A stretch of DNA of 64,000 nucleotides from a virus. Taxonomy: Duplodnaviria; Heunggongvirae; Uroviricota; Caudoviricetes. Each line of letters begins with the position of its first letter. Position 1 is the first letter of the stretch. Where the stretch lies: IMG/VR virus record IMGVR_UViG_3300013126_000015, positions 22,818 through 86,817 of that record. One strand, given 5' to 3'. A model generated the notes under the pieces. The model was given only the letters and a program-made list of their open reading frames with translations. It was not told the origin of the DNA and did not search any database. A program made the position numbers and the translations under genes. Below, in pieces: positions 15,181-56,459 of the stretch.

Positions 15181-16332
15181 CTATTGCCAATTGTATAGAT
15201 CGTCAAGATGTTTTTGCCATGCATGGATGGTGGGGTATTTTTGGAGGAATTGACCCTTTAATGGATTGTGACCCATATTTTTTAATCCAGCCTGATATGA
15301 TGTTTGTACCATTAATTTTTCCAATTCATCCATTGATTGTGTTGTTTTAAGTGCAGTTACCAAATGAGATTGATCATATGTTCTATTGTTGGCATATGTT
15401 TTTAATAATTCTTGTTTAGCTGGAGTATTTTTCATACGTTGAACCCAACCTGCAACTCTATACTCATCTAATGCAGAACCAATTTGTTGATTTTCATTAT
15501 CTGATAATTGAATTAATAGTTTAGATAATTGTTCTAGTGTTTTTGCAGAATTCAGTTGATGCAATGTCTCTTTCATGAATCTACCATGTTGTTGCATATC
15601 TTTTACACTATCTGGGGAATATTTGTTATTATAACGTTTTATATTAGTAATCGCATCTTTTGAGAAGAATACTGCCTGATTTCTTTCTGATGTATGTATG
15701 ATACCGATACCTGGATCATAAGCTCCATCGATGCCAATATATCTAAACAAATGATTCCACACAATATGAGTATTAGTACCTTGATCATTTGAGCGGGAAG
15801 TAGAAAGTTCTTGTGCTACTTTCATTGTCACGTACCATAATCTACCACCGGCATAACTATCGAATTTAGCTTTTCTATCTGATTGATTGATATAATGTTC
15901 AACTATATCAACTGCATCTTTCCATGGCATATTGGCATTTTTGGTAAAGTAGTCAGCGATTTTTTGGTAATATACTACTAAGTCTTGATTAGACAGGGTT
16001 TTAAGATTAATAATATTACCGTTAGCTTGGAATATATTAACAAATGCTTGATCGCCTGCAAATGGTAGATAATCCATTGCAGTATCAGTATTAGTTTGGT
16101 TAATAACGAATGATGCTGGGTAAGCATAGATACCGATTGGGGTATCCCATTCAGATTTAGGATTTATGCCTAATTTATCGACTGAAGTAAATGATACAAA
16201 GCAATTTACTTCATCTAAATTATCTAATGATGGTGCATTATGAAATGCATTAATAATAATATCATTAATGGATGTCTTAGGATTTTGTTTAGGATTTTTT
16301 CTTTTTTCAGTAATAAATTCATTTGCTCTCAT
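15181..16332 (-). CDS. putative packaged internal protein with T4-type capsid targeting sequence (MRANEFITE)
   Basis: N-terminus matches T4 IP CTS pattern xEF(I/L)xE; shared with 20245 and 20877 genes. Confidence 0.45.
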   Translation of the reverse strand: MRANEFITEKRKNPKQNPKTSINDIIINAFHNAPSLDNLDEVNCFVSFTSVDKLGINPKSEWDTPIGIYAYPASFVINQTNTDTAMDYLPFAGDQAFVNIFQANGNIINLKTLSNQDLVVYYQKIADYFTKNANMPWKDAVDIVEHYINQSDRKAKFDSYAGGRLWYVTMKVAQELSTSRSNDQGTNTHIVWNHLFRYIGIDGAYDPGIGIIHTSERNQAVFFSKDAITNIKRYNNKYSPDSVKDMQQHGRFMKETLHQLNSAKTLEQLSKLLIQLSDNENQQIGSALDEYRVAGWVQRMKNTPAKQELLKTYANNRTYDQSHLVTALKTTQSMDELEKLMVQTSYQAGLKNMGHNPLKGQFLQKYPTIHAWQKHLDDLYNWQ

Positions 16333-18877: not shown

Positions 18878-18882
18878 TAAAA

Positions 18883-18900
18883 AAGGTCCTTTCGGACCTT
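18883..18900 (-). terminator. rho-independent terminator hairpin AAGGTCC-TTTC-GGACCTT with U-run on minus strand
   Basis: perfect 7-bp GC-containing stem, A/T runs on both sides. Confidence 0.6.
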
Positions 18901-18911
18901 TAATGATGTTG

Positions 18912-20168
18912 TTAGCCTGGGATATGGTAGAATGTTTTATACTTTCCGCCAGGAATATGACCCTTTTTGTACCCTTGTGGTTTCAGTTCAGTATAGATGA
19001 TGGACAATAATTGTGAACATATTGGTCTACCTGGAAACAGTTCATTAGCCATTTCTTCCAGTACAACGAATCCATTTTTCATTCGATGCTCATCCGCAAG
19101 TTGACGTATTTTTTCTTTATTTCGTTCAGTTTTTAATGAACTGAGTGGTGGCAATTTTGTAGCAGAGGATGGCACCGGTTCTGCAGGCGTTAGAAATGTG
19201 ACCATGGGTTTATTAGGTGTTGTGTATTGTTGATACGGTTTCGATTCTATTCTACCATTAACCTTATAATGGCCAACATTTTTACTATCAACACATATAA
19301 TCGGTGCACTGATTATTTCGATAAGAGTAGGAATTAATGAATCATCATTAACATGAATGTAGGTATTATTAAAATGAGTCTCTATTTTGGTCAGTTGGGT
19401 CAGTAAATGATCACCATCTTTTGGTACTGCGATATAATAACAACCAATTTCAGCAGCAATATCCGAGAACAATTGTTTATTTTCAGATGGTAAGATGATC
19501 CCATGGCCGTTTAACAATGCTTTACCAACCTCAACATCCGTGAATGTGGATGTTATTTCATCTACTTCAGTTGGTTGTTCTTGTGGCGTTTGTTGAGATT
19601 GTTGAGATTGCTGTGCTGCTTTGGTATTAACCGATGCCATATTCAGTGTATTTTCTACAGATTGTTCAAATAGCGGAAATACTGTATTAATTCTTTCAAA
19701 TGATTTACTGAGTTTTGATAATTTAGCAACATGTGACTTTTTGCTGATAAATTCTACAGGTACCAGATGTATATGACTCATACGAACAAAGTACCCTAAC
19801 TCTGGAGTATAATGTGCTTTATATTGGCTTTTATATTTTTTAACTAATGGGTCATCAGTTAAAAATATCAGAATATCGCTATAAGCTCGTTCATTATCTA
19901 ATGCGTATTCCACTGGTGCTACATATTTACCAATATCCGCATCATAGTAACTACCTCTACTGACATGGTATTTACCAAGATCACAATGTTCACTTATAGA
20001 AGAATCGAGCAGATAATATTTTGGATTAGGTCCATATTGGATGTCAGCATATGGTAAGAATTGTGTGTTTGTGTTTAATGGGATAACAGGGTACTTATGT
20101 GTTGTCCCGGATTTTTTTGAAGTTGATTTTGTAGTTGATTTTGTAGTTGATTTTGTAGTTGTAGCCAT
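18912..20168 (-). CDS. hypothetical protein (418 aa) with N-terminal TTKS x3 repeat (12-bp DNA tandem repeat 20123-20166) and QQSQQS low-complexity linker
   Basis: ORF; repeats read directly. Confidence 0.5.
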   Translation of the reverse strand: MATTTKSTTKSTTKSTSKKSGTTHKYPVIPLNTNTQFLPYADIQYGPNPKYYLLDSSISEHCDLGKYHVSRGSYYDADIGKYVAPVEYALDNERAYSDILIFLTDDPLVKKYKSQYKAHYTPELGYFVRMSHIHLVPVEFISKKSHVAKLSKLSKSFERINTVFPLFEQSVENTLNMASVNTKAAQQSQQSQQTPQEQPTEVDEITSTFTDVEVGKALLNGHGIILPSENKQLFSDIAAEIGCYYIAVPKDGDHLLTQLTKIETHFNNTYIHVNDDSLIPTLIEIISAPIICVDSKNVGHYKVNGRIESKPYQQYTTPNKPMVTFLTPAEPVPSSATKLPPLSSLKTERNKEKIRQLADEHRMKNGFVVLEEMANELFPGRPICSQLLSIIYTELKPQGYKKGHIPGGKYKTFYHIPG

Positions 20169-20244
20169 GATTACTCTTCGTTGATGTTGAAAGGAAACGT
20201 GCTAAGTTATGCACCATCTATTATAGCAACTTGCGTTGATTATG

Positions 20245-20880
20245 TCAATAAATTAATGAATCAATTCTTTTGAATTTTATGTTAAATGCATGACAAACCA
20301 ATTCAATTTCTCGAAGACATTGATCACGACCACCACCCATCATATAAAATGGCTGAAGAGAATGAAGCAAGTGAATTGGCACCCAATCTTGAACGAATAT
20401 AGAATCACTATTATTTTCTAATACTTCTTGCGCATCATCTGATAATAATTCTGGATTAAGATCCCTGGAATCATTCTGTTTTTGATTGTACATTGCTCTG
20501 ATGATTTCAATTATGATATGGTTATCAACCCCAGAGTCCATGTAACCTCTCAAAAATCCAAATTCTTTCTGAATGAATTGTGCATTTTGTAATTTTTGTT
20601 CCAATGGTGTTTGTTCTGCTGGTATATAATCATCTTCCTCGTCATCATAAACATATCCATCATATTCTTCATCATGTCCTGCAAGATAATTCAGTACTTG
20701 GTCCGGTGTATCACCCCCACCAAAATCATTATATACTATTACAATTTTTCCATTTGCTTTTTGAATCATTTGTTGAACACCTGGAAGAATATTATTGGCA
20801 TAATTTTGATATTCAGGTTGAACATCAATAATTAATAAATTGGTATTGGATGATTCTGTTAAAAATTCTTTTGCTCTCAT
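20245..20880 (-). CDS. CTS-bearing (MRAKEFLTE) isochorismatase-family hydrolase-like protein (possible nicotinamidase)
   Basis: LLIIDVQPEY and GGGRDQCL resemble isochorismatase/PncA motifs; CTS-like N-terminus. Confidence 0.35.
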   Translation of the reverse strand: MRAKEFLTESSNTNLLIIDVQPEYQNYANNILPGVQQMIQKANGKIVIVYNDFGGGDTPDQVLNYLAGHDEEYDGYVYDDEEDDYIPAEQTPLEQKLQNAQFIQKEFGFLRGYMDSGVDNHIIIEIIRAMYNQKQNDSRDLNPELLSDDAQEVLENNSDSIFVQDWVPIHLLHSLQPFYMMGGGRDQCLREIELVCHAFNIKFKRIDSLIY

Positions 20881-22325
20881 AATGCTTCCTGTTCCTTATT
20901 TTTTATAACCAGTGCAATGGTGTTTAATGATATTTCTGGTGTCATTAATGCGTCATATGCCATTTTTCGTTTTTCAACAGGAACTTCGGTATCTATTGAA
21001 AAATACATATCAACTAATATTTTTCTAATTTCTTGTTCTGATAGACCATTAGTATTGATATTTTTAGATTGTAATAGATCCAATGCCCCTTTATTCTCAA
21101 ATTTAAATTTGATGGTATTAGTCATATATTTTAGATTTCTATGATCTTTTTCATATGCTATATTACAGATTTCTTCTGTTCTAAATTCAGTAGGAATTAA
21201 TCCCAAGAATTCTGTTGGCGATTTAATATTTGTTGCAAATTGAAGATATAGGTTATAATCTTTTAATTCGTCTGGAATATAATGTAATGGATTATTTTCT
21301 CTATATACTATCACAAATGGTTTTGTTAAATGTTCTAGCCATTTTCTATATTTAAGTCTGTTTATATCAGGCGTAATTTCAGATTGAGGTATATATTCCC
21401 ATACATCTGGGTTATTATGGGAAATGTCTTTATAAAAATCCAATGACTTTCCATGTATGGCTTTTAACGCTGGTGCAAAATTTTTCACTCCTATTCTTAA
21501 TATAGGATCAGGAATATCATTGATAACATCAGGGTTATATCTGAATAAGCTCATTATATATATTGCACAATATCCATTTTCTTTCGTTAGCATTAATGCT
21601 TTTTCAATTTGTCTATCACGATTTTTTATATTGTTATGCATATTAGCATTATCTAAAAAACTCATTGCACTTTTATACTTTTCTTTTGAGCTGCTAATAT
21701 CTGTTAAGTGTTTATTAATGATAGTTTGCTTAATTTGTTGAGCAGATAGTTTAGTAGCAGCAGTGAATTGTTGCTCTGACATTGAGTTATCTTGTTGATC
21801 AAATATTTCAATTTGTTCAATATCCTGATGAATGGCTAATGCCCACATAGTAGAAGATGGCCACGTAGTAGAAGATGCCATATCATTAGTGGGCTTTTTC
21901 TGTAAGCAGTATACCAATATTACACTTCTATCATAAAAGTATTCTTCAAAATAACTTTGTGTTGGTTTTGTTGTACACCAGCTTGACTCTTTACCATGAA
22001 AACATGATGCATCTTTATCTAATGGTATTACTATCAACCATTCATCATTTTCTTCTAAAGTAATGGATTGTCCTTTAGCTTTCTTACGTTTTATGTTTGT
22101 TTTGGTTTGTCCAGGATCAAATTCATCGACAAATGATTTAAATTCATCAAATGGCTGTTTACCCCAATAATCAATATTTTTTTGATTAATATCGGTTATT
22201 TGTTTTTTATCTACTAACTGTTTAAATTTGTTAATATACTGAGTAACTATAGTTTCATCATTTTTTTGTGAAAACTTTGATTTTACTTCTTTATATCCTT
22301 CTAATATAAATTCTTTTGCTCTCAT
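20877..22325 (-). CDS. putative internal protein with CTS (MRAKEFILE), 482 aa
   Basis: N-terminal 9 aa and upstream DNA conserved with 20245 and 15181 genes. Confidence 0.45.
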   Translation of the reverse strand: MRAKEFILEGYKEVKSKFSQKNDETIVTQYINKFKQLVDKKQITDINQKNIDYWGKQPFDEFKSFVDEFDPGQTKTNIKRKKAKGQSITLEENDEWLIVIPLDKDASCFHGKESSWCTTKPTQSYFEEYFYDRSVILVYCLQKKPTNDMASSTTWPSSTMWALAIHQDIEQIEIFDQQDNSMSEQQFTAATKLSAQQIKQTIINKHLTDISSSKEKYKSAMSFLDNANMHNNIKNRDRQIEKALMLTKENGYCAIYIMSLFRYNPDVINDIPDPILRIGVKNFAPALKAIHGKSLDFYKDISHNNPDVWEYIPQSEITPDINRLKYRKWLEHLTKPFVIVYRENNPLHYIPDELKDYNLYLQFATNIKSPTEFLGLIPTEFRTEEICNIAYEKDHRNLKYMTNTIKFKFENKGALDLLQSKNINTNGLSEQEIRKILVDMYFSIDTEVPVEKRKMAYDALMTPEISLNTIALVIKNKEQEAL

Positions 22326-23020
22326 TATTTTTCAAACCTTGTGGTAATTGGGTCAATTAATACTGCTTGCCCATTTTTTCTTCTCATGATATTATTAAAG
22401 TGCATATCAGGTTCAAATTGATTATTTCTGAATAATGGCTCTAATATTCTTAATGCTTGGGAAAATTGTTTATTTGTAGTTGAATGTCGAATTTTATTTC
22501 TGGTATTATCATCAAAAAATGCTTTCGAAAATTTAACATGGGCTGGGAATTTTCCACTAGGATCAGTCGAGTTGACAATATCCATTATTCCTAGATTATT
22601 ACACAATAATTCTACACCATTATTTGGATAGTCAAATAATCGTTCCATTACAATTAATAATTGATATTTTGCCTTTGATTGTTCTGGTTCCAAAAAGAAA
22701 TCATGTTGTTGTTCAAACCATTCCATATCATCATATGAAAATTTACTTATATCATATAATTTGAATTTAAGGATTTTTGGAAAGAATTGGTTTTCTGGAT
22801 GATTATGGCATACTCTTAAAAATTGATATGCTGGATCTGATGGACCACTTATTGCAACAAATTTAAGGATGATATTCGGGTTATTTTGAACAGCATATGC
22901 TATAGCTTGAATTCCATTTCCAAGATATGATAATTGTGGTTTATTAATTACACCAGATAATGGTTTTTTTGATGTGGGTATTTCTATTTTCTTTTCTAAG
23001 ATGAGTTCATGAATTTTCAT
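22325..23020 (-). CDS. kinase-like paralog with CTS-like N-terminus (MKIHELILE); degenerate catalytic motif
   Basis: C-terminus ...NGQAVLIDP paralogous to 23024 gene. Confidence 0.4.
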   Translation of the reverse strand: MKIHELILEKKIEIPTSKKPLSGVINKPQLSYLGNGIQAIAYAVQNNPNIILKFVAISGPSDPAYQFLRVCHNHPENQFFPKILKFKLYDISKFSYDDMEWFEQQHDFFLEPEQSKAKYQLLIVMERLFDYPNNGVELLCNNLGIMDIVNSTDPSGKFPAHVKFSKAFFDDNTRNKIRHSTTNKQFSQALRILEPLFRNNQFEPDMHFNNIMRRKNGQAVLIDPITTRFEK

Positions 23021-23023
23021 ATA

Positions 23024-23650
23024 TTAAACCATTGGGTCGATAACAACAAGGTCGCCATTTTCACGTTGCATAATGTTTCCGCGATGTAGGTCTAACACAT
23101 GGGATGGATATGTATTCATCAAGTCAACCATTAATTCAAATATTTTTGGATAATCATGGCGTAATGTTTGGATTCTGGACGGATCATTGTTCATAAACCA
23201 TTCTATATCACTTTTATCACCTATCGATGATATGATGCCAACTAACGAATTGTATTGGTCATTGCGCGAAATTCTATGTAATTTTTCAATTCTAACAACA
23301 AAAGTATTGTCGTTGATTTTAATGATATTGCCCTTAAACTTTGGAATTAAAGGATTATTTTGATGTTGTCTTGCATATTGTATGTAATCAAAATACGCTT
23401 TATCATGTGTGAATATTTTGAACACCCATGGGTAGTTAGGATGTTCAAATGCTGTTCCACCTTGCCCCGGTGAACCAACAGCATTAAATCCATTATCTAC
23501 CATATACTTTTGAAATTGTATTAATCGAGATATTCTATTATTAACCCCAGACAAATCCCCATGGAAAATTTCTTGGGATTTTTTGTAATGGTCGTTTTGT
23601 TTGTATCCAGTAAGTTCACGAATATGCATCTTGTATTTATGCTTATTCAT
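23024..23650 (-). CDS. protein kinase-like fold protein (APH/ChoK-like HxDLHRGNI ... VVIDP)
   Basis: catalytic-loop-like DLHRGNIM and IDP motif. Confidence 0.4.
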   Translation of the reverse strand: MNKHKYKMHIRELTGYKQNDHYKKSQEIFHGDLSGVNNRISRLIQFQKYMVDNGFNAVGSPGQGGTAFEHPNYPWVFKIFTHDKAYFDYIQYARQHQNNPLIPKFKGNIIKINDNTFVVRIEKLHRISRNDQYNSLVGIISSIGDKSDIEWFMNNDPSRIQTLRHDYPKIFELMVDLMNTYPSHVLDLHRGNIMQRENGDLVVIDPMV

Positions 23651-23658
23651 GCATTATA

Positions 23659-23877
23659 TTACTTAACTCTGATTGCCTTTTTTTTCACCCACTTAAATTC
23701 TTCTTCATCAAATTTATTATCGAATAGGTTCTTTACTATTTTCGCAGATTGTTTATATTCTTGCCAAACTTTATCAGAATCGTCAATTAAGTTTCTATTT
23801 TTACTTTTGGTATAAACAAATACTTTTTTATATTTTTTAAATGAGTTTGAATTGGGTGCTAATTGATAATATAGCAT
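23659..23877 (-). CDS. hypothetical protein (72 aa)
   Basis: ORF. Confidence 0.35.
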   Translation of the reverse strand: MLYYQLAPNSNSFKKYKKVFVYTKSKNRNLIDDSDKVWQEYKQSAKIVKNLFDNKFDEEEFKWVKKKAIRVK

Positions 23878-23878
23878 T

Positions 23879-24187
23879 CTACCCTTTGAATATTTTTTTT
23901 AATATCTTACGGTTGTTTGTGACATTGTGTTGACCAATATCAACGGCTCTCAATTTAATCCACCTGAATTCTTTAATATCTTCATCAGATATTTTACCAG
24001 TTTCTCCGGTTCGATTTTTAATAAGAAATACTTCTCCAGAAATATTGTTTTCTGCCCACACACGGTCACTTGATAATATTACTTTATACATTACCTTTTC
24101 CAATCGTACTACTGGTGGGTAATCCGATATATACGGATTAATTACAGCATAAATGGTCCAGTTGTTATCTAGTAAATTAATGTCCAT
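23879..24187 (-). CDS. hypothetical protein (102 aa)
   Basis: ORF. Confidence 0.4.
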   Translation of the reverse strand: MDINLLDNNWTIYAVINPYISDYPPVVRLEKVMYKVILSSDRVWAENNISGEVFLIKNRTGETGKISDEDIKEFRWIKLRAVDIGQHNVTNNRKILKKIFKG

Positions 24188-25064
24188 ATTTTTCTATTAT
24201 AGATTTGATGTCATTAATAATATTTTGATTTACATCAATTGAAATGGCGCTAGAAATAGAACCATAGTGCATTTCCAATGATTCAAATAATAATTTCTTA
24301 ATTGTATTTTCGTCTGGCGCATACCGCAAGGTTGATTCATGATACAATTTATCTAAATATTTTTCTTTTTCTGCAAACCATTCTTCATTTTTTTCAATTG
24401 GCCATTCACCATTTCTTACTGAACGTAGTAATGGTCCGTTGCATTCAAGATCTAAATCATGATGCTCCAATATCTGTTCACACTCAAGTCCAAGACGTAA
24501 AATATGATATAAAAACTTCGTATCATACCCAACTCTATCTATTGTTTCTTGCCGTTTTTTATTTGATCTATTAGCTCCATTTTTAAATTTAGATATTTGT
24601 GAAAACATGTATCCACGGAATTTATGGAATGAACCTTTATGTAGGAATAGTTTTCTATTTGTTCTAATATGCTCGTATATTCCAGTAGAATGTAGTACAC
24701 ATCGTCTAGGCAAAAACAGAACGTCAACCATATTTGGATTATTTTCCATTGCCAATTGAAAGAATTTAACAATATTATAGATTGTTAAATCTATTTCTTT
24801 ACGATGCTCTTTTAGTTCAATATGGTGTTGTTGAAATACATCAAATCGTTGTTGCTGAGAACCAAATCCTAAAATTTCACCGGCAAGATGCGGGAAAATA
24901 ATTTCTTTTGGTGGAATACAGAATCCTACAATATCCATATCAGATGCATCATCAGATGCTGCATATGCAATAGAGCCTGTCATCCCTTCAAACATGGTGT
25001 TATCAGGTAACCATTTTGGTGGAGTAATTAGATTTTTTTGTGAAAGAATTTTTGAATATTGCAT
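24177..25064 (-). CDS. Pol-beta superfamily nucleotidyltransferase (GS-x10-DMD motif) with C-terminal helical domain
   Basis: MTGSIAYAASDDASDMDIVGF and downstream VDVLF carboxylate. Confidence 0.45.
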   Translation of the reverse strand: MQYSKILSQKNLITPPKWLPDNTMFEGMTGSIAYAASDDASDMDIVGFCIPPKEIIFPHLAGEILGFGSQQQRFDVFQQHHIELKEHRKEIDLTIYNIVKFFQLAMENNPNMVDVLFLPRRCVLHSTGIYEHIRTNRKLFLHKGSFHKFRGYMFSQISKFKNGANRSNKKRQETIDRVGYDTKFLYHILRLGLECEQILEHHDLDLECNGPLLRSVRNGEWPIEKNEEWFAEKEKYLDKLYHESTLRYAPDENTIKKLLFESLEMHYGSISSAISIDVNQNIINDIKSIIEKYGH

Positions 25065-25121
25065 TAGGATTCTCCGTGACTGATATATTATTATATCATA
25101 TCACGGAGACAATGCAACTAA

Positions 25122-27626
25122 TTATTTACCGTTATCAACGATAATACTTGTTGAATATGTGATACCACCTAAAACATAACCTTTAGTTGAATCAGCATCA
25201 AAACCAATTCCGAAAGATTTAGCGGTACCTTTCCAAGATATTTTAGCACAATCAAGGACGGTTACCTGTTTAGTACCAATTGTAACAACATTACCATTTA
25301 CCGCAGTGATCTTAGCATGAATATCACTTGCTGATTTAGCACCAGCTGGTGTTACACAACTTCCAGCAGGAACTGGGGTTGGTGCTAATGTAGGCACTGG
25401 GGTGCTAGTTGGTGCAGCAGTTGGGACCGGTGTAGCAGTAGGTGCAACTGTTGGTACAGGTGTTGAAGTAGGAATTGCTGTTGGCACTGGAGTGCTAGTA
25501 GGCAATGGGGTACTTGTAGGTACAGCTGTAGGCACCGGTGTAGCTGTAGGAGCAACAGTTGGAACCGGAGTAGCAGTTGCAACGACTGGAGCTGGATCTA
25601 ACGTAATAGTAGTGGCTTCACAGAATACACCAGTTTGATCTTTAACACCAGCATATGTTGCTAATGATCCAGCAGCAAACGTACCTGTCCCGCCAACTAC
25701 GACACCAGTATAATGGACCATTGCGTTTGCCGTAGTAAATGCAGGGTTTGCACCTCTTAATTGAGTGAAACCGGTAATCGGTTCTTGAACACCAGAACAC
25801 GCAGGAGTATTAATAGTCAAATCCAATGTTTCAGATGCAGCAGTTCCAGCAGAATCGGTCAAATCAAATTGAATCGGATAAACACCACTGGTTCCTTGTG
25901 TACCATTAGTATTATCTGGAGCGGCTGGTGTGCCGTACAATTGAATACCATCAAATAACAAACCATTTGGAAGTGGTAAACTAACTGCATTAATAGCAAT
26001 GGTATAAGGAGCGATGCCACCAGTTACACTAATCGGTGTATTAGGCATTGCAACACCTTCAGTCAACACTGGAAGACCTAGAGTAGTAAATGCTAATGCT
26101 GGAACAGGAACAACTACTGGAGCTGGTTGACCATTAGCTAACAATACTTGAACTGTATAAGCTTTAGTAGAAACATTACCATCAGTATCAGTTACATTGA
26201 TAGAAAAGTCATATTTACCAGGAACAGTTGGAGTACCTTCAACAATACCACTATCCAACCCAACAGTCAACCCATCAGGAACTTGACCAGTTGTAGTGAT
26301 TTTATATGGAGAATTACCACCATAAACTGTAGATAATGGAGCCATTTTAGTGTTAACTTTAATATCAGCAATTGCTTCAGCTTGAGTCAATGGCATAACG
26401 TCATTGAAACCAACCATGTTTTCAGAGATAAAGTCACCTACAACAACTACAGCAGAACAATCATAAGAATAACTATCACCTTGCGTATCAGTAATAGTTA
26501 CTGCATTTAATGATGCCGCACCATGTTTACCATCTGGACCAACAGTATCACACATTTGTTCATGTGTTTCACCATCAAATGACCCAGTTGTAGCTGAACC
26601 AGTTGCAGCATTTACGCCAGATGTTAGAGCAGGATCACCATTACCAAATCTGAAGTAGGTATATTTGCGAGTAATAACTTCATCATTAGCTACTTTTTCA
26701 GCAGCACCTACATGTTCTTCTTTAGGTTGTGGTTTACAGACTTTTGGATCTGGATCAACGCAAGCTTTAGCTTTAGGTGGCTTTTGAATCAAATACCATT
26801 CAGATTCAACTTGATTAGGTTCACCATTTTGCCAATCAGGAAGACCATCACCATTTTTATCTTCATTAACTAATGCTTTAACCAATTGGTCAGCACCACC
26901 AGCAACTTTTTTACCATGTACTGACGTTTTTTCAACTCTCAACCAAACAGGTTCACCCCATTGAGCAGGAGCTGGTTCAACTTTTTCTTTAGGAGCTTGC
27001 TGAACAGGGACTACGTTAACTACCGCAGGTTGAAGAGGAATCGGTTGAGCTGGGGCTGGTTGTACTGGAGGTGGAGCTACGAACGTTGGAATTGCCATAG
27101 TAACACCAGGAGCAGATCCACCCAAACTAGCACCACGAACAAGACCAGAGCCTTGTTGATTCAACCAATAAAATCCAACGGATTTAGGAGTACCCATTGC
27201 ACCAGTTGCGAAATGTTCACATCCTGTATCAGCAGCAGATACACAAGAATGTCCACCGGTTGACCATGTTGAAGTGTCTGCAGCAATCGTACCACGAGGA
27301 CGAACACCATTTGCATCAGGTTTCAACTCGTAATGTACGATAGCATGAATTACACCAGCAGCATCAGTATATTCACCCACAGTTGGTGCACCATAACGTG
27401 CTGAATACCATGTATAGCCAATTTGAGCAGAATGCAAACCTTCAAAGTCTTGCTCAAAACCGTATGCCATTTGACCTGTATCATTCGCGACATCAAAGTT
27501 ACCAACAGATACGGCTTGTGCACCAATACCTACACCACATTTACCAAATCCATCACATATAGTGAATGCTTCTGCAGTCGTAATAAAAAATCCCAATAAT
27601 GCCGGGATGTACTTAATATATTTCAT
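25122..27626 (-). CDS. secreted protein with signal peptide, Ig-like (He_PIG-type) domains and ~70-aa Pro/Thr-rich linker; track start 27638, ATG 27626 preferred
   Basis: MKYIKYIPALLGFFITTAEA signal; TPVPT repeats; GGAGA SD before ATG 27626; GC-richer codon usage. Confidence 0.55.
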   Translation of the reverse strand: MKYIKYIPALLGFFITTAEAFTICDGFGKCGVGIGAQAVSVGNFDVANDTGQMAYGFEQDFEGLHSAQIGYTWYSARYGAPTVGEYTDAAGVIHAIVHYELKPDANGVRPRGTIAADTSTWSTGGHSCVSAADTGCEHFATGAMGTPKSVGFYWLNQQGSGLVRGASLGGSAPGVTMAIPTFVAPPPVQPAPAQPIPLQPAVVNVVPVQQAPKEKVEPAPAQWGEPVWLRVEKTSVHGKKVAGGADQLVKALVNEDKNGDGLPDWQNGEPNQVESEWYLIQKPPKAKACVDPDPKVCKPQPKEEHVGAAEKVANDEVITRKYTYFRFGNGDPALTSGVNAATGSATTGSFDGETHEQMCDTVGPDGKHGAASLNAVTITDTQGDSYSYDCSAVVVVGDFISENMVGFNDVMPLTQAEAIADIKVNTKMAPLSTVYGGNSPYKITTTGQVPDGLTVGLDSGIVEGTPTVPGKYDFSINVTDTDGNVSTKAYTVQVLLANGQPAPVVVPVPALAFTTLGLPVLTEGVAMPNTPISVTGGIAPYTIAINAVSLPLPNGLLFDGIQLYGTPAAPDNTNGTQGTSGVYPIQFDLTDSAGTAASETLDLTINTPACSGVQEPITGFTQLRGANPAFTTANAMVHYTGVVVGGTGTFAAGSLATYAGVKDQTGVFCEATTITLDPAPVVATATPVPTVAPTATPVPTAVPTSTPLPTSTPVPTAIPTSTPVPTVAPTATPVPTAAPTSTPVPTLAPTPVPAGSCVTPAGAKSASDIHAKITAVNGNVVTIGTKQVTVLDCAKISWKGTAKSFGIGFDADSTKGYVLGGITYSTSIIVDNGK

Positions 27627-27736
27627 TAATTTCTCCATAAAAATTTAAATTGTCAGCGTCAATATTATCAGACACTAATATATATTTATGGTAATGCTAC
27701 CATAAATTCTGTGTGTTATATCAAAGATTTATAATT

Positions 27737-29821: not shown

Positions 29822-31282
29822 CTATGCTCTAGCTCGTGATTTTACTTCGTCCCACGACTGCCGGTATTCTCTAAACCCGTCTTTGTACCACAATCTCCAT
29901 CCAGCCGCTGGAGTCAAAAAATTAAAGATATTTCCTTCTGATATAGCGTCATATACTTCAATGTCACCATTTTCATTCTCTCTGCAGCGAACTAATCCTT
30001 TTAATGATTTTTTTCCAGAATCAGTAATAGGATCTTTAATAGTAGCAACCCATTTTCCATATCTAAAATTTGCAGTTGATTTGAAACTGAAACCAAAATC
30101 ATCACGCGAACCAAAATGGGTGATACCTGCTCCAGAACCTAAGCAAAAGTTGTCCATAGCAAAGCCAGCATCAACCCACCCTTGACAAATTTCTCGAACT
30201 GTATTTACTTTTACACCATCTCCCTGTATTACACCAGTTGATGGGTGTAATACCTTGTACCCTTTATTATTAATAGTTACCCCAAAGGTAGCTTCCCAAT
30301 CTTTGCCTACTAATCCTGGTTCGATTGTCATATCTCCGGTATCTGGTCTAGCAATCATGCGCCCACCAGATGCCAAAATTCTATCTTTTAATCTAGTACC
30401 AAGATATTCTCTCACAAATCTTCTTGAATCATATGTATCAATCACTGCTGACATAAATGGTAAACCAATGCCGCGTTTATGTCTTTCCACTGCCTCAAAT
30501 AATCTATCTACTACCATAACAGCTGCACCGAAATCATCTTTATTTTCCGCATCTGAATGAGCACATGATACACTATGTTCACTCGCTTCAATAGATGAAG
30601 TTGATGGTTTATATGTTCCATACAAGCGTTTAATATACCCATTTGCTCTAATACAGTCTGACCCATCAAATAGTGCGGCATGTGCAATACCAGAGATTAC
30701 TGCTGCTTCATCTGGACTATCAGCACTTCTGTCGCCAAACTCATGCATCATGTAGTTAACATTGGTGGTGTCAGTTCCGGTAAGTTCACAGAATTCTATA
30801 AGAGTCAACCTCATTGCTCTGCAAACAGATGCAACAGTAGACATTTTCCAAATCAATGCTTGTGAAAATGTTTCAAAATAGGTTACTAACCACGCAAAAT
30901 TAGACACAGTATTAATAATACCAACTATTGGCGTTTGTGGTGCAACTATTCGGCCTTCTTCTACTCCATAAATTGCTAATGGTATTTTTCCATCAAGTTC
31001 TCGTACAATACGTTCCCATCCTTCTCTATTGAAGTGGTATCCTTGTTCAGTAACTTCAACTTCTGCTTCATCAATCATTTCCATTGTGATTCTAGTAGCT
31101 GCAAAAATTGAAGATAATAGGGTAATACCCATTGAAACAATATGGGTAGAATATGAACTTGACTTTCGTGGAACCATATTTGCATAACCATATTCGTCGC
31201 CAGTAGGTGCTTCTAGCCAGTGATTAATTTTATACCCATCTGCACACAAAATTATATTAAATGGTTTTAAATGTTCTAACAT
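29822..31282 (-). CDS. nadV: nicotinamide phosphoribosyltransferase
   Basis: full-length NAMPT-like translation; GAGGA SD. Confidence 0.75.
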   Translation of the reverse strand: MLEHLKPFNIILCADGYKINHWLEAPTGDEYGYANMVPRKSSSYSTHIVSMGITLLSSIFAATRITMEMIDEAEVEVTEQGYHFNREGWERIVRELDGKIPLAIYGVEEGRIVAPQTPIVGIINTVSNFAWLVTYFETFSQALIWKMSTVASVCRAMRLTLIEFCELTGTDTTNVNYMMHEFGDRSADSPDEAAVISGIAHAALFDGSDCIRANGYIKRLYGTYKPSTSSIEASEHSVSCAHSDAENKDDFGAAVMVVDRLFEAVERHKRGIGLPFMSAVIDTYDSRRFVREYLGTRLKDRILASGGRMIARPDTGDMTIEPGLVGKDWEATFGVTINNKGYKVLHPSTGVIQGDGVKVNTVREICQGWVDAGFAMDNFCLGSGAGITHFGSRDDFGFSFKSTANFRYGKWVATIKDPITDSGKKSLKGLVRCRENENGDIEVYDAISEGNIFNFLTPAAGWRLWYKDGFREYRQSWDEVKSRARA

Positions 31283-33054: not shown

Positions 33055-34089
33055 TCACCTGCATATTGAAACACCCCAAGTAATTATCGAAAGATGGTCC
33101 TCGAACAAATATTCCTCCATATCTAATACATCATCAATTGGAAACCACTTGGCAAATCTAGCATCATCAGATCCTTTAACTTTAGACAACGGTCCAGATG
33201 GTAATTCTATTGCATAAGCATGTGTGATAGTTCGTCCTCGCAATGATCGTGACGGTTTATCGAACACCTGCGTTCCTTTTATAGAACCTCTTAATACTGG
33301 CTCTGGTATTTTGATTTTAGTTTCTTCCCTTAACTCTCTTATAACACCATCAATCAAATATTCGGACTGGTTTACAAATCCCCCAGGAAGTGCCCATAAT
33401 CCTTTTCCAGGACTCGCTTTACGTTGCACCAATAGGACATGACCTGATTGAATCACAACAGCGTCAGTGGTCACAAAAGTGGGTGGGTATGGAGCATTGT
33501 CCCAGGATTTTTTATAACCTTGAATATGATTAAACTCATCAACCAGATTTTTATAATCATCACTTTTTGTCCACTCTCTTAAATCGTTCTGCAGTTGGGA
33601 ATCAATTAACGGTCTATCTTTCCAATTAAATATTGCTCCAGTAAATAATTGTTCCCGGACAGTGGTTGCATCAATATCAATGATATGATCGGTATTAATA
33701 AAATCCCATTGTGGGAAATAATCAATATAATAGGAAGTAGAATCTTTTTTGCAGCCCACGATACCAATTTTTGGATCGGTAATGCCACATGTTTCTTTTT
33801 TGACTATTCGTTGAACTTGTTGAATCCACTCTTGATCAACTCGGAAATCACGGATACCATGACAACTAATTCTGGATGAATCTTGTTTTGGTAGTTGATT
33901 CAGTAACATTGCAGCACGTTCATACCACTTCCACGGGTTTTTAATCGTTCGTGGTTGAAAGCTGGAGCCGAATAATACTATTACTTTATTTGAACGTTCT
34001 AATGCTGTAGTTACATTATGAACATGTGCGTGAGTTGGTGGTTGCATTCTGCCAATGTATACAATGGCATCATATTTTTGTTTTGTCAT
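33055..34089 (-). CDS. natV: bifunctional NMN adenylyltransferase / Nudix ADP-ribose pyrophosphatase
   Basis: N-terminal HxxH nucleotidyltransferase motif (PPTHAHVH) plus Nudix box (GGFVNQSEYLIDGVIRELREETK). Confidence 0.7.
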   Translation of the reverse strand: MTKQKYDAIVYIGRMQPPTHAHVHNVTTALERSNKVIVLFGSSFQPRTIKNPWKWYERAAMLLNQLPKQDSSRISCHGIRDFRVDQEWIQQVQRIVKKETCGITDPKIGIVGCKKDSTSYYIDYFPQWDFINTDHIIDIDATTVREQLFTGAIFNWKDRPLIDSQLQNDLREWTKSDDYKNLVDEFNHIQGYKKSWDNAPYPPTFVTTDAVVIQSGHVLLVQRKASPGKGLWALPGGFVNQSEYLIDGVIRELREETKIKIPEPVLRGSIKGTQVFDKPSRSLRGRTITHAYAIELPSGPLSKVKGSDDARFAKWFPIDDVLDMEEYLFEDHLSIITWGVSICR

Positions 34090-54791: not shown

Positions 54792-54970
54792 CTTAAAATA
54801 AAGTAAGTGTAATCTCGCTGGTTATCAAATTGTATCACATCTTTTAGAATTTTGCAATGGAATTCTTTTTCGAATTCTTTAGTAGATGGTTCGGTGCCAT
54901 GTGTATTTTCATACCATTCATAGGCACTGAACACTTCATTACTTCTGAATAGTAACTCATGTTTTTTCAT
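54782..54970 (-). CDS. family II small protein (...DYTYFILRWC)
   Basis: C-terminal motif. Confidence 0.45.
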   Translation of the reverse strand: MKKHELLFRSNEVFSAYEWYENTHGTEPSTKEFEKEFHCKILKDVIQFDNQRDYTYFILRWC

Positions 54971-55266
54971 TATTCACCAAATTTTAACACAAATAATGTT
55001 CTATCCTGTTCTTTTTTAAAGTAAAAACGAAAATATCCATCCTCATCAATGCCATGATAGAATCTATCTTTAAATGATTCTTCGCACCATAAGATTGATT
55101 CTACCAATTGATCATGTGAGTCATGCATACTTGTAAAATTTGATCTTACGTAATAAATGAATGCTGTTTCGTGAGTGTTATCTAGTTGGCCAACTGATTT
55201 CACTATTACCGGAGTCCAGTCATATCTATTTCTCATTGAAAAAATCGATGCTGATGGGATTGACAT
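54970..55266 (-). CDS. family II small protein (...DRTLFVLKFGE); track ORF trimmed to internal ATG 55266
   Basis: AT-rich low-complexity N-terminal extension in track ORF is implausible. Confidence 0.4.
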   Translation of the reverse strand: MSIPSASIFSMRNRYDWTPVIVKSVGQLDNTHETAFIYYVRSNFTSMHDSHDQLVESILWCEESFKDRFYHGIDEDGYFRFYFKKEQDRTLFVLKFGE

Positions 55267-55330
55267 AGGTTGTACACCCACGATGTCATTGGCAATTGAT
55301 TGTGGTATTATCTTTCTTAATAATGGTATA

Positions 55331-55516
55331 TTAATCTCTGTCACGGTGCTCATGATGGTGATGTCGGTTATGATGCTGATTATGATGGTATTGGTATTGT
55401 GGATAATACCTTGGGTAATATACAGGTTGAACTGGGTAATAATAGCTGTCGTATCCACGGTAATTGTGGGCACATCCAACTAAAAATAATAACGATAATA
55501 CTAATAATTTATTCAT
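55331..55516 (-). CDS. His/Tyr/Pro-rich lipoprotein (61 aa; lipobox LVGC)
   Basis: MNKLLVLSLLFLVGCA then YYYPVQPVYYPRYYP...HHNRHHHHEH. Confidence 0.5.
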   Translation of the reverse strand: MNKLLVLSLLFLVGCAHNYRGYDSYYYPVQPVYYPRYYPQYQYHHNQHHNRHHHHEHRDRD

Positions 55517-56459
55517 AAATTGTAACACAGTTTTTTCCATTGTTTTTGGCTTTATACAAAGCAATATCAGATCGTTTATAAGTATCGATCCATGATGAAT
55601 CGGTGTATTTATCACACATTGCCGCGCCTATACTTATAGTAATTGGTTGTTCTAACTTTAACATAGGTTGGCTATTCTGTACTATTACTCTAATTTTTTC
55701 ACACAATGATGGTAATTTGTGAGGTTTAGTATCACTGCAGATGATGACGAATTCTTCTCCACCAAATCTGCAAACTACATCCGTAATTCTTACGGCATTT
55801 TTGATAACATTAGCGACATGTTTTAATACTATATCACCTACATCATGCCCAAAAGTATCATTAATTATTTTAAAATCATCTAAATCAATGCTTATGATAG
55901 AGAATGGTATTGATGATCTATATGAGTTATTCCATAACCGTACCAATTTGTCTTCTGCATAACGTCTATTATATAACCCAGTAAGTACATCTGTTATTAA
56001 TTGGTGATATAAATTGTTAGCATGCTCTTCCAAATATACATTATGTTTAGACAAATTATCATTTTCTAATTTGATTGAATATATCTGATTAACAATATAC
56101 ATGGCATTTATTAATCTACCATGAAGTTCAGTAGTGTTTATTGGTTTTTTTATAAAATCATTTGCACCAGCTTTGAATGCTAATTGTAATACGGACATAT
56201 CTGTTTCGACTGTCATCATAATTATATAATACCATTTATGATGTTGTCTAAGTATTTTACATAATTCAATACCATCGATTGAATTTAAATGACAGTCGGC
56301 AATTATTACATCGGGGTTATGTAATGGGATATTTAATATGGCAGATTCTATTGAGTGTTCACAATATACATTAAACTGCATTGATGACAAATAAGAACTC
56401 AATATAATAAGATTGATTTCATCATCATCAATCAATAATATATTAAATCCTCTATTCAT
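55509..56459 (-). CDS. response-regulator receiver + GGDEF diguanylate cyclase (GGEEF active site)
   Basis: N-terminal REC (LLIDDDE...D), C-terminal RFGGEEF. Confidence 0.7.
   Translation of the reverse strand: MNRGFNILLIDDDEINLIILSSYLSSMQFNVYCEHSIESAILNIPLHNPDVIIADCHLNSIDGIELCKILRQHHKWYYIIMMTVETDMSVLQLAFKAGANDFIKKPINTTELHGRLINAMYIVNQIYSIKLENDNLSKHNVYLEEHANNLYHQLITDVLTGLYNRRYAEDKLVRLWNNSYRSSIPFSIISIDLDDFKIINDTFGHDVGDIVLKHVANVIKNAVRITDVVCRFGGEEFVIICSDTKPHKLPSLCEKIRVIVQNSQPMLKLEQPITISIGAAMCDKYTDSSWIDTYKRSDIALYKAKNNGKNCVTIYE

Follow-up and report, generated by a model that had tools for sequence, protein, structure and literature searches.

Two adjacent genes of an uncultivated large phage raise the question of whether a virus fields an active protein kinase together with a catalytically dead copy of it, or whether both copies work. 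They lie on the minus strand of a 64,000-nucleotide stretch of DNA (the window; positions 22,818 to 86,817 of IMG/VR virus record IMGVR_UViG_3300013126_000015) that is part of a metagenome contig of 102,445 bp with 31–34% G+C, and are here called gene A and gene B. The original prediction, made from the nucleotide sequence, held that gene A encodes an active kinase, while gene B, its paralog, has lost the catalytic Asp and acquired an N-terminus resembling a capsid-targeting sequence (CTS), so that its product would be an injected pseudokinase partner. The analysis presented below places both proteins in the family of the phage T7 kinase gp0.7 (T7K) and leads us to consider it likely that A and B are tandem, diverged and translationally coupled kinases of the gp0.7 type, both of them probably active.

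Translation of the minus strand verified both open reading frames (ORFs) and, with them, the motifs DLHRGNIM...VVIDP in A and DMHFNNIM...VLIDP in B, as they had first been reported. The longest ORF of gene A spans 23024..23650 (208 aa), and its start is most likely the eighth codon, Met8 (23629), since the JGI gene call is 201 aa long and 21 of 21 close relatives begin M-x-[IL]-x-E-L-T-G-Y-K. A look-up of contigs encoding the 201-aa form returned no record. With this start gene A, coding for a putative A-type T7K-like minimal protein kinase, occupies 23024..23629. Gene B, coding for a putative B-type T7K-like minimal protein kinase, occupies 22325..23020 (231-aa ORF) and begins 3 nt after the stop codon of gene A. 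It overlaps the next gene downstream, of 482 aa, in the sequence TAATG, and that gene overlaps a 211-aa gene in the sequence ATGA. The 3-nt gap and the two overlaps make the four genes a translationally coupled block. Promoter and terminator scans near the kinase genes gave background level only, and a promoter serving the kinase block was not found in them.

Membership of the T7 gp0.7 family

The relationship between A and B is faint in pairwise comparison. With BLASTP only the C-terminal 22 aa align (55% identity, E 7e-6), and relaxed settings extend the alignment to 206 aa at 23% identity (E 1.6e-5). When an alignment of 11 A-orthologues was compared with one of 4 B-orthologues by hhalign, the two matched at 96.6% (E 5.4e-10) over 147 columns, which is the whole core. 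The similarity reaches beyond the shared motif, bearing out the paralogy that had been predicted, and A and B are real paralogs, old and distant.

Gene A matches PHROG 15752, the T7 gp0.7-type protein kinase, over residues 41–207 (E 2.6e-12), and gene B matches it at the C-terminus only (E 1.4e-5). Searching with both sub-families as seeds yielded 85 relatives; the family alignment, to which the residue counts given below refer, comprises 78 sequences, 21 of A-type and 57 of B-type. The profile of these 78 sequences matches T7 gp0.7 residues 66–221 in hhalign at 98% (E 2.2e-13), and the family hidden Markov model (HMM) matches both gp0.7 (E 1.7e-13) and the Berlinvirus kinase (E 4.3e-18). The 57 B-type sequences alone give a profile that matches the N-lobe of gp0.7 at 92.8% (E 4e-7); the gene B orthologue profile alone, which is too shallow at 4 sequences, matches gp0.7 at 29%. 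A tblastn search of gene B against GenBank phages found no match. The membership of gene B in the family is supported only through profiles.

T7K (gp0.7; UniProt P00513; PF27024; PHROG 2828/15752) has its kinase-domain family in common with A and B, at about 25% identity or less. The likeness begins at the N-terminus, where T7K reads MNITDIM and the A-type proteins M-x-I-x-E-L, and continues through the Gly loop GNG..AAY and the V-I-K context of the beta3 Lys to the catalytic loop D-M/L-H-x-x-N-I-M and the D-P that replaces DFG; none of these proteins has an activation loop. The catalytic loop reads DMHSGNIM in T7K, DLHRGNIM in gene A and DMHFNNIM in gene B, and the pattern D-[ML]-H-x-x-N-[IM]-M accommodates both of the latter. 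T7 differs in having one copy, where two tandem copies are found here. The third residue of its DPV motif is Val, as against Met in gene A and Ile in gene B, and its C-terminal shut-off/DNA-binding domain is absent from A and B; in T7K the motif comprises residues 213–215 and the domain residues 243–359 (PMC13645617). In the T7K homologues of jumbo phages the Val of DPV is absent or less conserved, and the shut-off domain is missing as well (PMC13645617), so this domain defines the T7 (Autographiviridae) architecture and not the kinase-domain family.

Stand-alone kinase domains in very large genomes are likewise found in Salmonella phage Munch, Escherichia phage G17 and phage EJP2 (gp452), whose proteins have only ~25% identity to gene A and lack the M-x-I-x-E-L N-terminus. 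The closest cultured-phage relatives of gene A are EVB91_001 and EVB91_002 of Rhizobium phage RHph_I1_18 (29.9% identity, E 4e-9). These are also two adjacent copies, both of A-type and one of them annotated as 'putative protein kinase'; they depart from the pair described here in that one carries an N-terminal domain of ~190 aa and one reads D-F-R-R-D-N in its catalytic loop, with Arg in place of His.

Predicted structures

AlphaFold2 models built on the 78-sequence alignment reached a mean pLDDT (the predicted local distance difference test) of 94.3 for A and 91.4 for B. In Foldseek searches of the PDB, the model of A retrieved only kinase-like folds, including PERK, FN3K, ROCK1, APH(2''), IRE1, CDK2 and RIO1. 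The model of B gave 124 matches at E<=1e-3, and all of the 50 listed are kinase-like, among them CDK12, MK2, PINK1, APH(3'), CK2 and AceK. Its best matches in BFVD are phage kinases, including Autographiviridae 'protein kinase' entries and A0A7L7SMK1, a protein that has been named as a T7K homologue (PMC13645617). The original prediction was to be given up if no kinase-fold match appeared; sequence profiles and structure prediction agree instead on a kinase fold for both proteins, and the PDB matches listed were all kinase-like.

Both models start with an N-terminal helical extension, followed by strands beta1–beta3, which carry the Gly-rich loop and the beta3 Lys; in gene A this Lys (K71) falls within the model strand 68–74. 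Next come an alphaC-like helix that starts from an invariant Asp, strands beta4–beta5 leading to a hinge Glu, and four helices, after which the chain runs through the catalytic loop, two short strands and the D-P motif to its end. Helices alphaF–alphaI and the activation segment are missing from both models. Gene A ends 2 residues past DP, and the range over A and B is 2–8 residues, so that neither protein has an activation loop or a T7-type C-terminal shut-off/DNA-binding domain.

With the eukaryotic-like kinases and with those of the APH, choline kinase and RIO kinds, A and B have in common the bilobal fold, the beta3 Lys, the D-x-x-x-x-N loop and the metal-binding Asp. Those enzymes possess an activation segment and helices alphaF–alphaI, whereas A and B lack everything past the DFG equivalent, and their C-lobe consists of four helices set before the catalytic loop. 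A domain that stops at the DFG equivalent is among the smallest kinase domains, which makes A and B convenient for asking how little of a kinase suffices and whether promiscuity is family-wide.

Several results weigh against the assignment of A and B to this fold and family. Foldseek TM-scores (template modelling scores) to PDB kinases are modest, at 0.27–0.45, because the C-lobe is much reduced, and small-molecule kinases (APH, FN3K, choline kinase) reach about the same scores as protein kinases. A conserved alphaC Glu could not be made out in the family; an invariant Asp at the start of alphaC (D76 in A, D62 in B) may take its place. Local Pfam-A and NCBIfam scans of A and B produced no meaningful match. 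PF27024 (Phage_T7_kinase) is recorded in the public protein collection on many homologues and weakly on gene A, and the precomputed matches hold no such record for gene B. Sequence searches of the PDB with three family profiles found no relevant solved structure. Set beside the profile matches to gp0.7 and the predicted folds, these points leave us nearly certain that A and B have the fold and belong to the family of T7 gp0.7 (T7K, PF27024).

The near-equal Foldseek scores bear also on what the two enzymes would phosphorylate. One or both could be small-molecule kinases of the aminoglycoside, choline or fructosamine-kinase kind, acting for example on a metabolite or an antibiotic-like substrate. 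In APH and choline kinases the catalytic residues follow the pattern HGDLHxxN ... IDxE, which the D-L-H-x-x-N ... I-D-P of the present proteins resembles; FN3K, APH(2''), APH(3'), APH(4) and LicA appear in Foldseek at E-values like those of protein kinases, and NAD-salvage genes lie 7–10 kb off. Set against this, the profile homology is specifically to T7K, which is an experimentally proven Ser/Thr/Tyr protein kinase (PMC13645617), and among predicted viral structures phage protein kinases match best. In addition, A and B end at DP and are therefore without the C-terminal helical region by which APH and choline kinase enzymes bind their substrates. A small-molecule kinase is on balance unlikely here, and the substrates of A and B are rather to be expected among proteins.

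Catalytic residues

A pseudokinase is one in which the beta3 Lys, the catalytic Asp, the loop Asn or the metal-binding Asp has been lost, and gene B has lost none of these. In gene A, read on the minus strand, the Gly-rich loop GSPGQGGTA is encoded by 23450..23476, the beta3 Lys K71 (WVFKIF) by 23417..23419, the catalytic loop DLHRGN with D180 and N185 by 23075..23092, and the DFG-equivalent DP motif (D198-P199) by 23033..23038. The corresponding elements of gene B, on the same strand, are the Gly-rich loop GNGIQAIAY (22895..22921), which in T7K reads GNGHFSAAY; K53 (IILKF; 22862..22864), which aligns with K71 of gene A; the catalytic loop DMHFNN, intact with D205 and N210 (22391..22408); and the DP motif D223-P224 (22349..22354).

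These residues are held almost without exception across the family. The catalytic Asp (D180/D205), the loop Asn (N185/N210) and both the Asp and the Pro of the DP motif (D198-P199/D223-P224) are kept in 78 of 78 relatives. The beta3 Lys (K71/K53) is found in 76 and replaced by Arg in two, being invariant in the 21 A-type sequences and present in 55 of the 57 B-type sequences. The second Gly of the Gly-rich loop (G55/G36) is kept in 77; counting on the gp0.7 translation matches it to G76 of T7K, and T7K G76F is a catalytic-dead mutant (PMC13645617). The loop His is replaced in a few members, by Arg in six and occasionally by Gly, Ala, Ser or Thr. No family member among the 78 sequences has lost the catalytic Asp, the loop Asn or the DP Asp.

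The statement that the catalytic Asp of gene B is replaced was therefore mistaken: D205 and N210 are kept, and the loops of A and B differ only at positions 4 and 5, by R->F and G->N. These are the two most variable loop positions in the 78 relatives, with Phe at position 4 in 12 and Asn at position 5 in 8 of the 57 B-type sequences. The pairing of an active kinase A with a dead pseudokinase B, acting as an injected partner or regulator, would be in keeping with the adjacency and translational coupling of the two genes, with the fusion of A- and B-type domains in one polypeptide (P0090), which is compatible with a functional partnership, and with an N-terminal tag that gene B carries and gene A lacks. 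Gene B keeps its Gly-rich loop with G36, its K53, D205, N210 and D223, however, and its two substitutions fall where the loop varies most. Moreover, in gene B orthologues of 51–72% identity DMHFNNIMRRKNGQAV never varies, nor does the DP two variable residues farther on, and no part of the protein is better conserved than the catalytic segment. This pattern, as read from the sequences, is the opposite of a decaying active site. Indeed, T7 gp0.7, with the loop DMHSGN, is nearer to gene B than to gene A at this point. An enzyme paired with a pseudokinase is in our view scarcely credible for this locus, and both copies are probably catalytically competent.

Tandem copies and fusions

The T7K-like family is very large in uncultivated phages, amounting to 6,265 clusters (50% identity) at E<=1e-3 and 2,998 at E<=1e-10, and the side-by-side arrangement of A and B recurs within it. 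A relative with 71% identity (L011) repeats the order A then B and the 3-nt spacing, and another contig (L012) has the order B then A. Five B-type genes lie within 8.5 kb of a third contig (L006), and two are adjacent in a fourth (L007). Copies are also joined in one polypeptide: in P0090 a B-type domain is fused to an A-type domain, the 1021-aa polyprotein P0088 has five tandem kinase domains, hmmsearch finds up to six matched stretches in P0091 (1343 aa), and P0089 and P0097 are further metagenome polyproteins in which at least two T7K-like kinase domains are joined. The polyprotein junctions read (Q/E)LNELTGYK without a Met, which identifies them as true fusions.

T7 gp0.7, the Berlinvirus kinase, the homologue of EJP2 (Asteriusvirus), the RHph_I1_18 genes and gene A all score higher with the A-type HMM, and every B-type copy found comes from a metagenome assembly. 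The family splits into at least two old sub-clades, often side by side or fused. That large phages carry T7K-like kinases, and that a Pfam family exists for them, is known already; what is new here are the very divergent members, the second (B-type) sub-clade and the tendency of copies to stand in tandem or to be fused.

Genes of the DUF6934 family (PF22028) adjoin kinase genes in related contigs (L006, 3778..4248; L007, 9344..10262), and in P0006 a DUF6934 domain is fused N-terminally to an A-type kinase. There is no DUF6934 gene in the window.

Proposed role in infection

The data presented above have led us to propose a model in which the coupled block would supply two stand-alone minimal kinase domains, constitutively active toward Ser and Thr and perhaps Tyr. 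T7K phosphorylates most of the host proteome and disarms several defence systems (PMC13645617). In the same manner, A and B would phosphorylate host proteins during infection, thereby serving host take-over, disarming defence systems, or both. Duplication would have yielded different substrate ranges, timing or delivery for the two copies, rather than an enzyme and its regulator.

Kinases of this kind could also be turned against other phages, as a defence or exclusion module of the phage or lysogen comparable to PD-T4-6 or Stk2. The C-terminus of gene B does match PADLOC models of PD-T4-6 (E 3.9e-5 and 2e-3), and four of five T7K homologues kept within bacterial contigs are in predicted prophages (PMC13645617). 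The PADLOC match, however, covers the generic catalytic loop only, 44–51 residues of models 372–476 long, and the kinase genes sit among genes for replication and nucleotide metabolism, in a lytic-type region of a large phage that has consensus sigma70 promoters. No integrase or repressor was seen in the annotated part of the window. An exclusion function is for these reasons very improbable, and the take-over and anti-defence role modelled on T7K is the one that we favour.

The N-terminal tag of gene B

Gene B opens with MKIHELILE (22994..23020, minus strand), which fits the pattern M-[RK]-x-x-E-[FLI]-[ILV]-x-E. Three more minus-strand genes of the window start in this way: the 482-aa gene (20877..22325) with MRAKEFILE at 22299..22325, the 211-aa gene that follows it (20245..20880) with MRAKEFLTE at 20854..20880, and a gene at 15181..16332 with MRANEFITE at 16306..16332. 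The 482-aa and 211-aa genes have no assigned function, the former belonging to PHROG 28193/17056 (unknown function). All three share the 18-nt start ATGAGAGCAAA(A/T)GAATTT, which encodes MRA(K/N)EF and is followed by [IL]-x-E, and they have no other similarity among themselves; the 482-aa and 211-aa genes have the identical 18-nt start ATGAGAGCAAAAGAATTT. Orthologues of gene B begin MKASEFINE, MRANEFITE and MRAEEFILE.

The prohead protease of T4 (gp21) cleaves by the rule (L/I)-x-E. The CTS of the T4 internal proteins (IPII/IPIII), MKTYQEFIAE, which tblastn confirmed at 100% against T4 ipII, has the core E-F/L-I-x-E in common with the tag of gene B, and this core fits the cleavage rule. As at the T4 loci for these proteins, the tag is carried by unrelated, clustered genes. 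It is one residue shorter than the T4 CTS, whose role is summarised in PMC9026906. The CTS-like N-terminus that had been noted on gene B is thus real as a resemblance of sequence, and it is one that gene B shares with unrelated neighbours.

As judged from the contigs searched, the tag occurs widely among large phages that have not been cultivated. The 18-mer is present in at least 120 viral contig stretches (IMG/VR, loci L015–L134), with at least 141 matches, 133 of which open complete ORFs, and the tagged proteins, at least 132 in number, fall into 31 clusters when their first 12 residues are removed. Positions that the 18-mer leaves unspecified are nevertheless conserved, position 7 being Ile, Val or Leu in 120 of 132 proteins and position 9 being Glu in 119 of 132. 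In the same loci, 61 further ORFs begin M-x-x-x-E-[FLIM]-[IVL]-x-E with other residues at positions 2–4, where a rough estimate from residue frequencies gives ~0.6 expected. Synonymous codons vary in these ORFs (AGA/CGA/CGC, GCA/GCC/GCT/GCG, GAA/GAG, TTT/TTC), which indicates selection on the peptide and not on the DNA. For representatives of the tagged clusters, Pfam and PHROG yielded almost no matches, and the string 'MRAKEF' was not found in the literature searched.

An explanation of the MRAKEF tag at the DNA level was considered and is less likely, since tagged ORFs outside the 18-mer selection use varied codons. The N-terminal motif of the A-type proteins was likewise considered as a removable leader. 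The sequence (Q/E)LNELTGYK is kept internally in P0088, P0097, P0006 and P0090, and at the polyprotein junctions it is therefore part of the domain, so that a removable leader as the sole nature of this motif was rejected.

The resemblance to the T4 signal invites the idea that gene B and the three MRA(K/N)EF genes carry a T4-CTS-like capsid-targeting or propeptide tag that would be cut after its second Glu. The product of gene B would then be packed in the head, injected and able to phosphorylate host defence or take-over targets before phage transcription, while that of the untagged gene A would act after its expression. We regard this packaging scheme as doubtful. The window showed no gene for a prohead protease, and caution is advised by T7 gp0.7, which is not known as a packaged protein and also has an N-terminal start of this kind, MNITDIM. 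Should the tag prove to direct packaging, it would label the proteins that a large group of uncultured phages inject; it is a more original lead than the kinase pair and may prove the more useful.

Gp23 is the major capsid protein of T4. A 127-aa protein of the window (54970..55353, minus strand) matches the N-terminal part of Pfam Gp23 with its first ~75 residues (E 3.4e-13, above the gathering score); its gene, capsid-fragment-like, lies among replication genes. The protein may be a decoy or chaperone-related, and its sequence alone hints at a T4-type capsid lineage.

Genome context

The window encodes helicases, a primase, a DnaB-type helicase, an RNA ligase 1-like protein and endonuclease VII. 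The DnaB-type helicase has 45–50% identity to its counterparts in the jumbo phages Atu_ph07, PA5oct and Phosso, and a megablast search of positions 20000–26000 against GenBank phages found no match. By its sequence, the carrier is a large, uncultivated phage with a replicative helicase most like those of Atu_ph07 and PA5oct.

Eight perfect sigma70 promoters (TTGACA-N16-18-TATAAT) occur in the 64 kb, as against 0.31 expected. They are located at positions 1724, 2771, 7465, 11044, 14074, 18877, 20248 and 34168, six of them on the minus strand, which is that of the kinases, and one follows a terminator-like hairpin at 18901..18882. Their presence fits early transcription driven by the host RNA polymerase.

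Among the neighbours of the kinase genes, the 482-aa protein contains a conserved DKDASC..GK...WCT motif, and its residues 5–198 are 35% identical to gp37 of Salicola phage SCTP-2, in whose 440-kb genome six places match by tblastn. A gene with a perfect promoter of its own follows directly downstream of the kinase block (18912..20168, minus strand) and encodes a 418-aa protein that has the Ser/Thr-rich repeat MATTTKSTTKSTTKSTSKKSGTT at its start; that this protein is a kinase substrate or decoy is pure speculation. Upstream of the kinases by two small genes, and on their strand, lies a gene for an RlaP-like nucleotidyltransferase (24177..25064; Pfam PF10127, E 2e-17; PHROG 388, E 5e-47).

Farther off, the NAD-salvage pair occupies 29822..31282 and 33055..34089 on the minus strand and comprises nicotinamide phosphoribosyltransferase (NAMPT; PHROG 448, E 6e-110) and a fusion of an NMNAT/cytidylyltransferase with a NUDIX domain (PHROG 395, E 6e-71). 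A response-regulator receiver is fused to a GGDEF diguanylate cyclase at 55509..56459 on the minus strand (Pfam E 3.7e-24 and 9.6e-44). Finally, the product of the minus-strand gene at 25122..27638, 838 aa in length, combines an N-terminus that looks like a signal peptide with a He_PIG Ig-like domain and a long repeat rich in Pro and Thr (TPVPT...), and the gene lies in a stretch with a G+C content of 0.37–0.39, compared with ~0.31 nearby.

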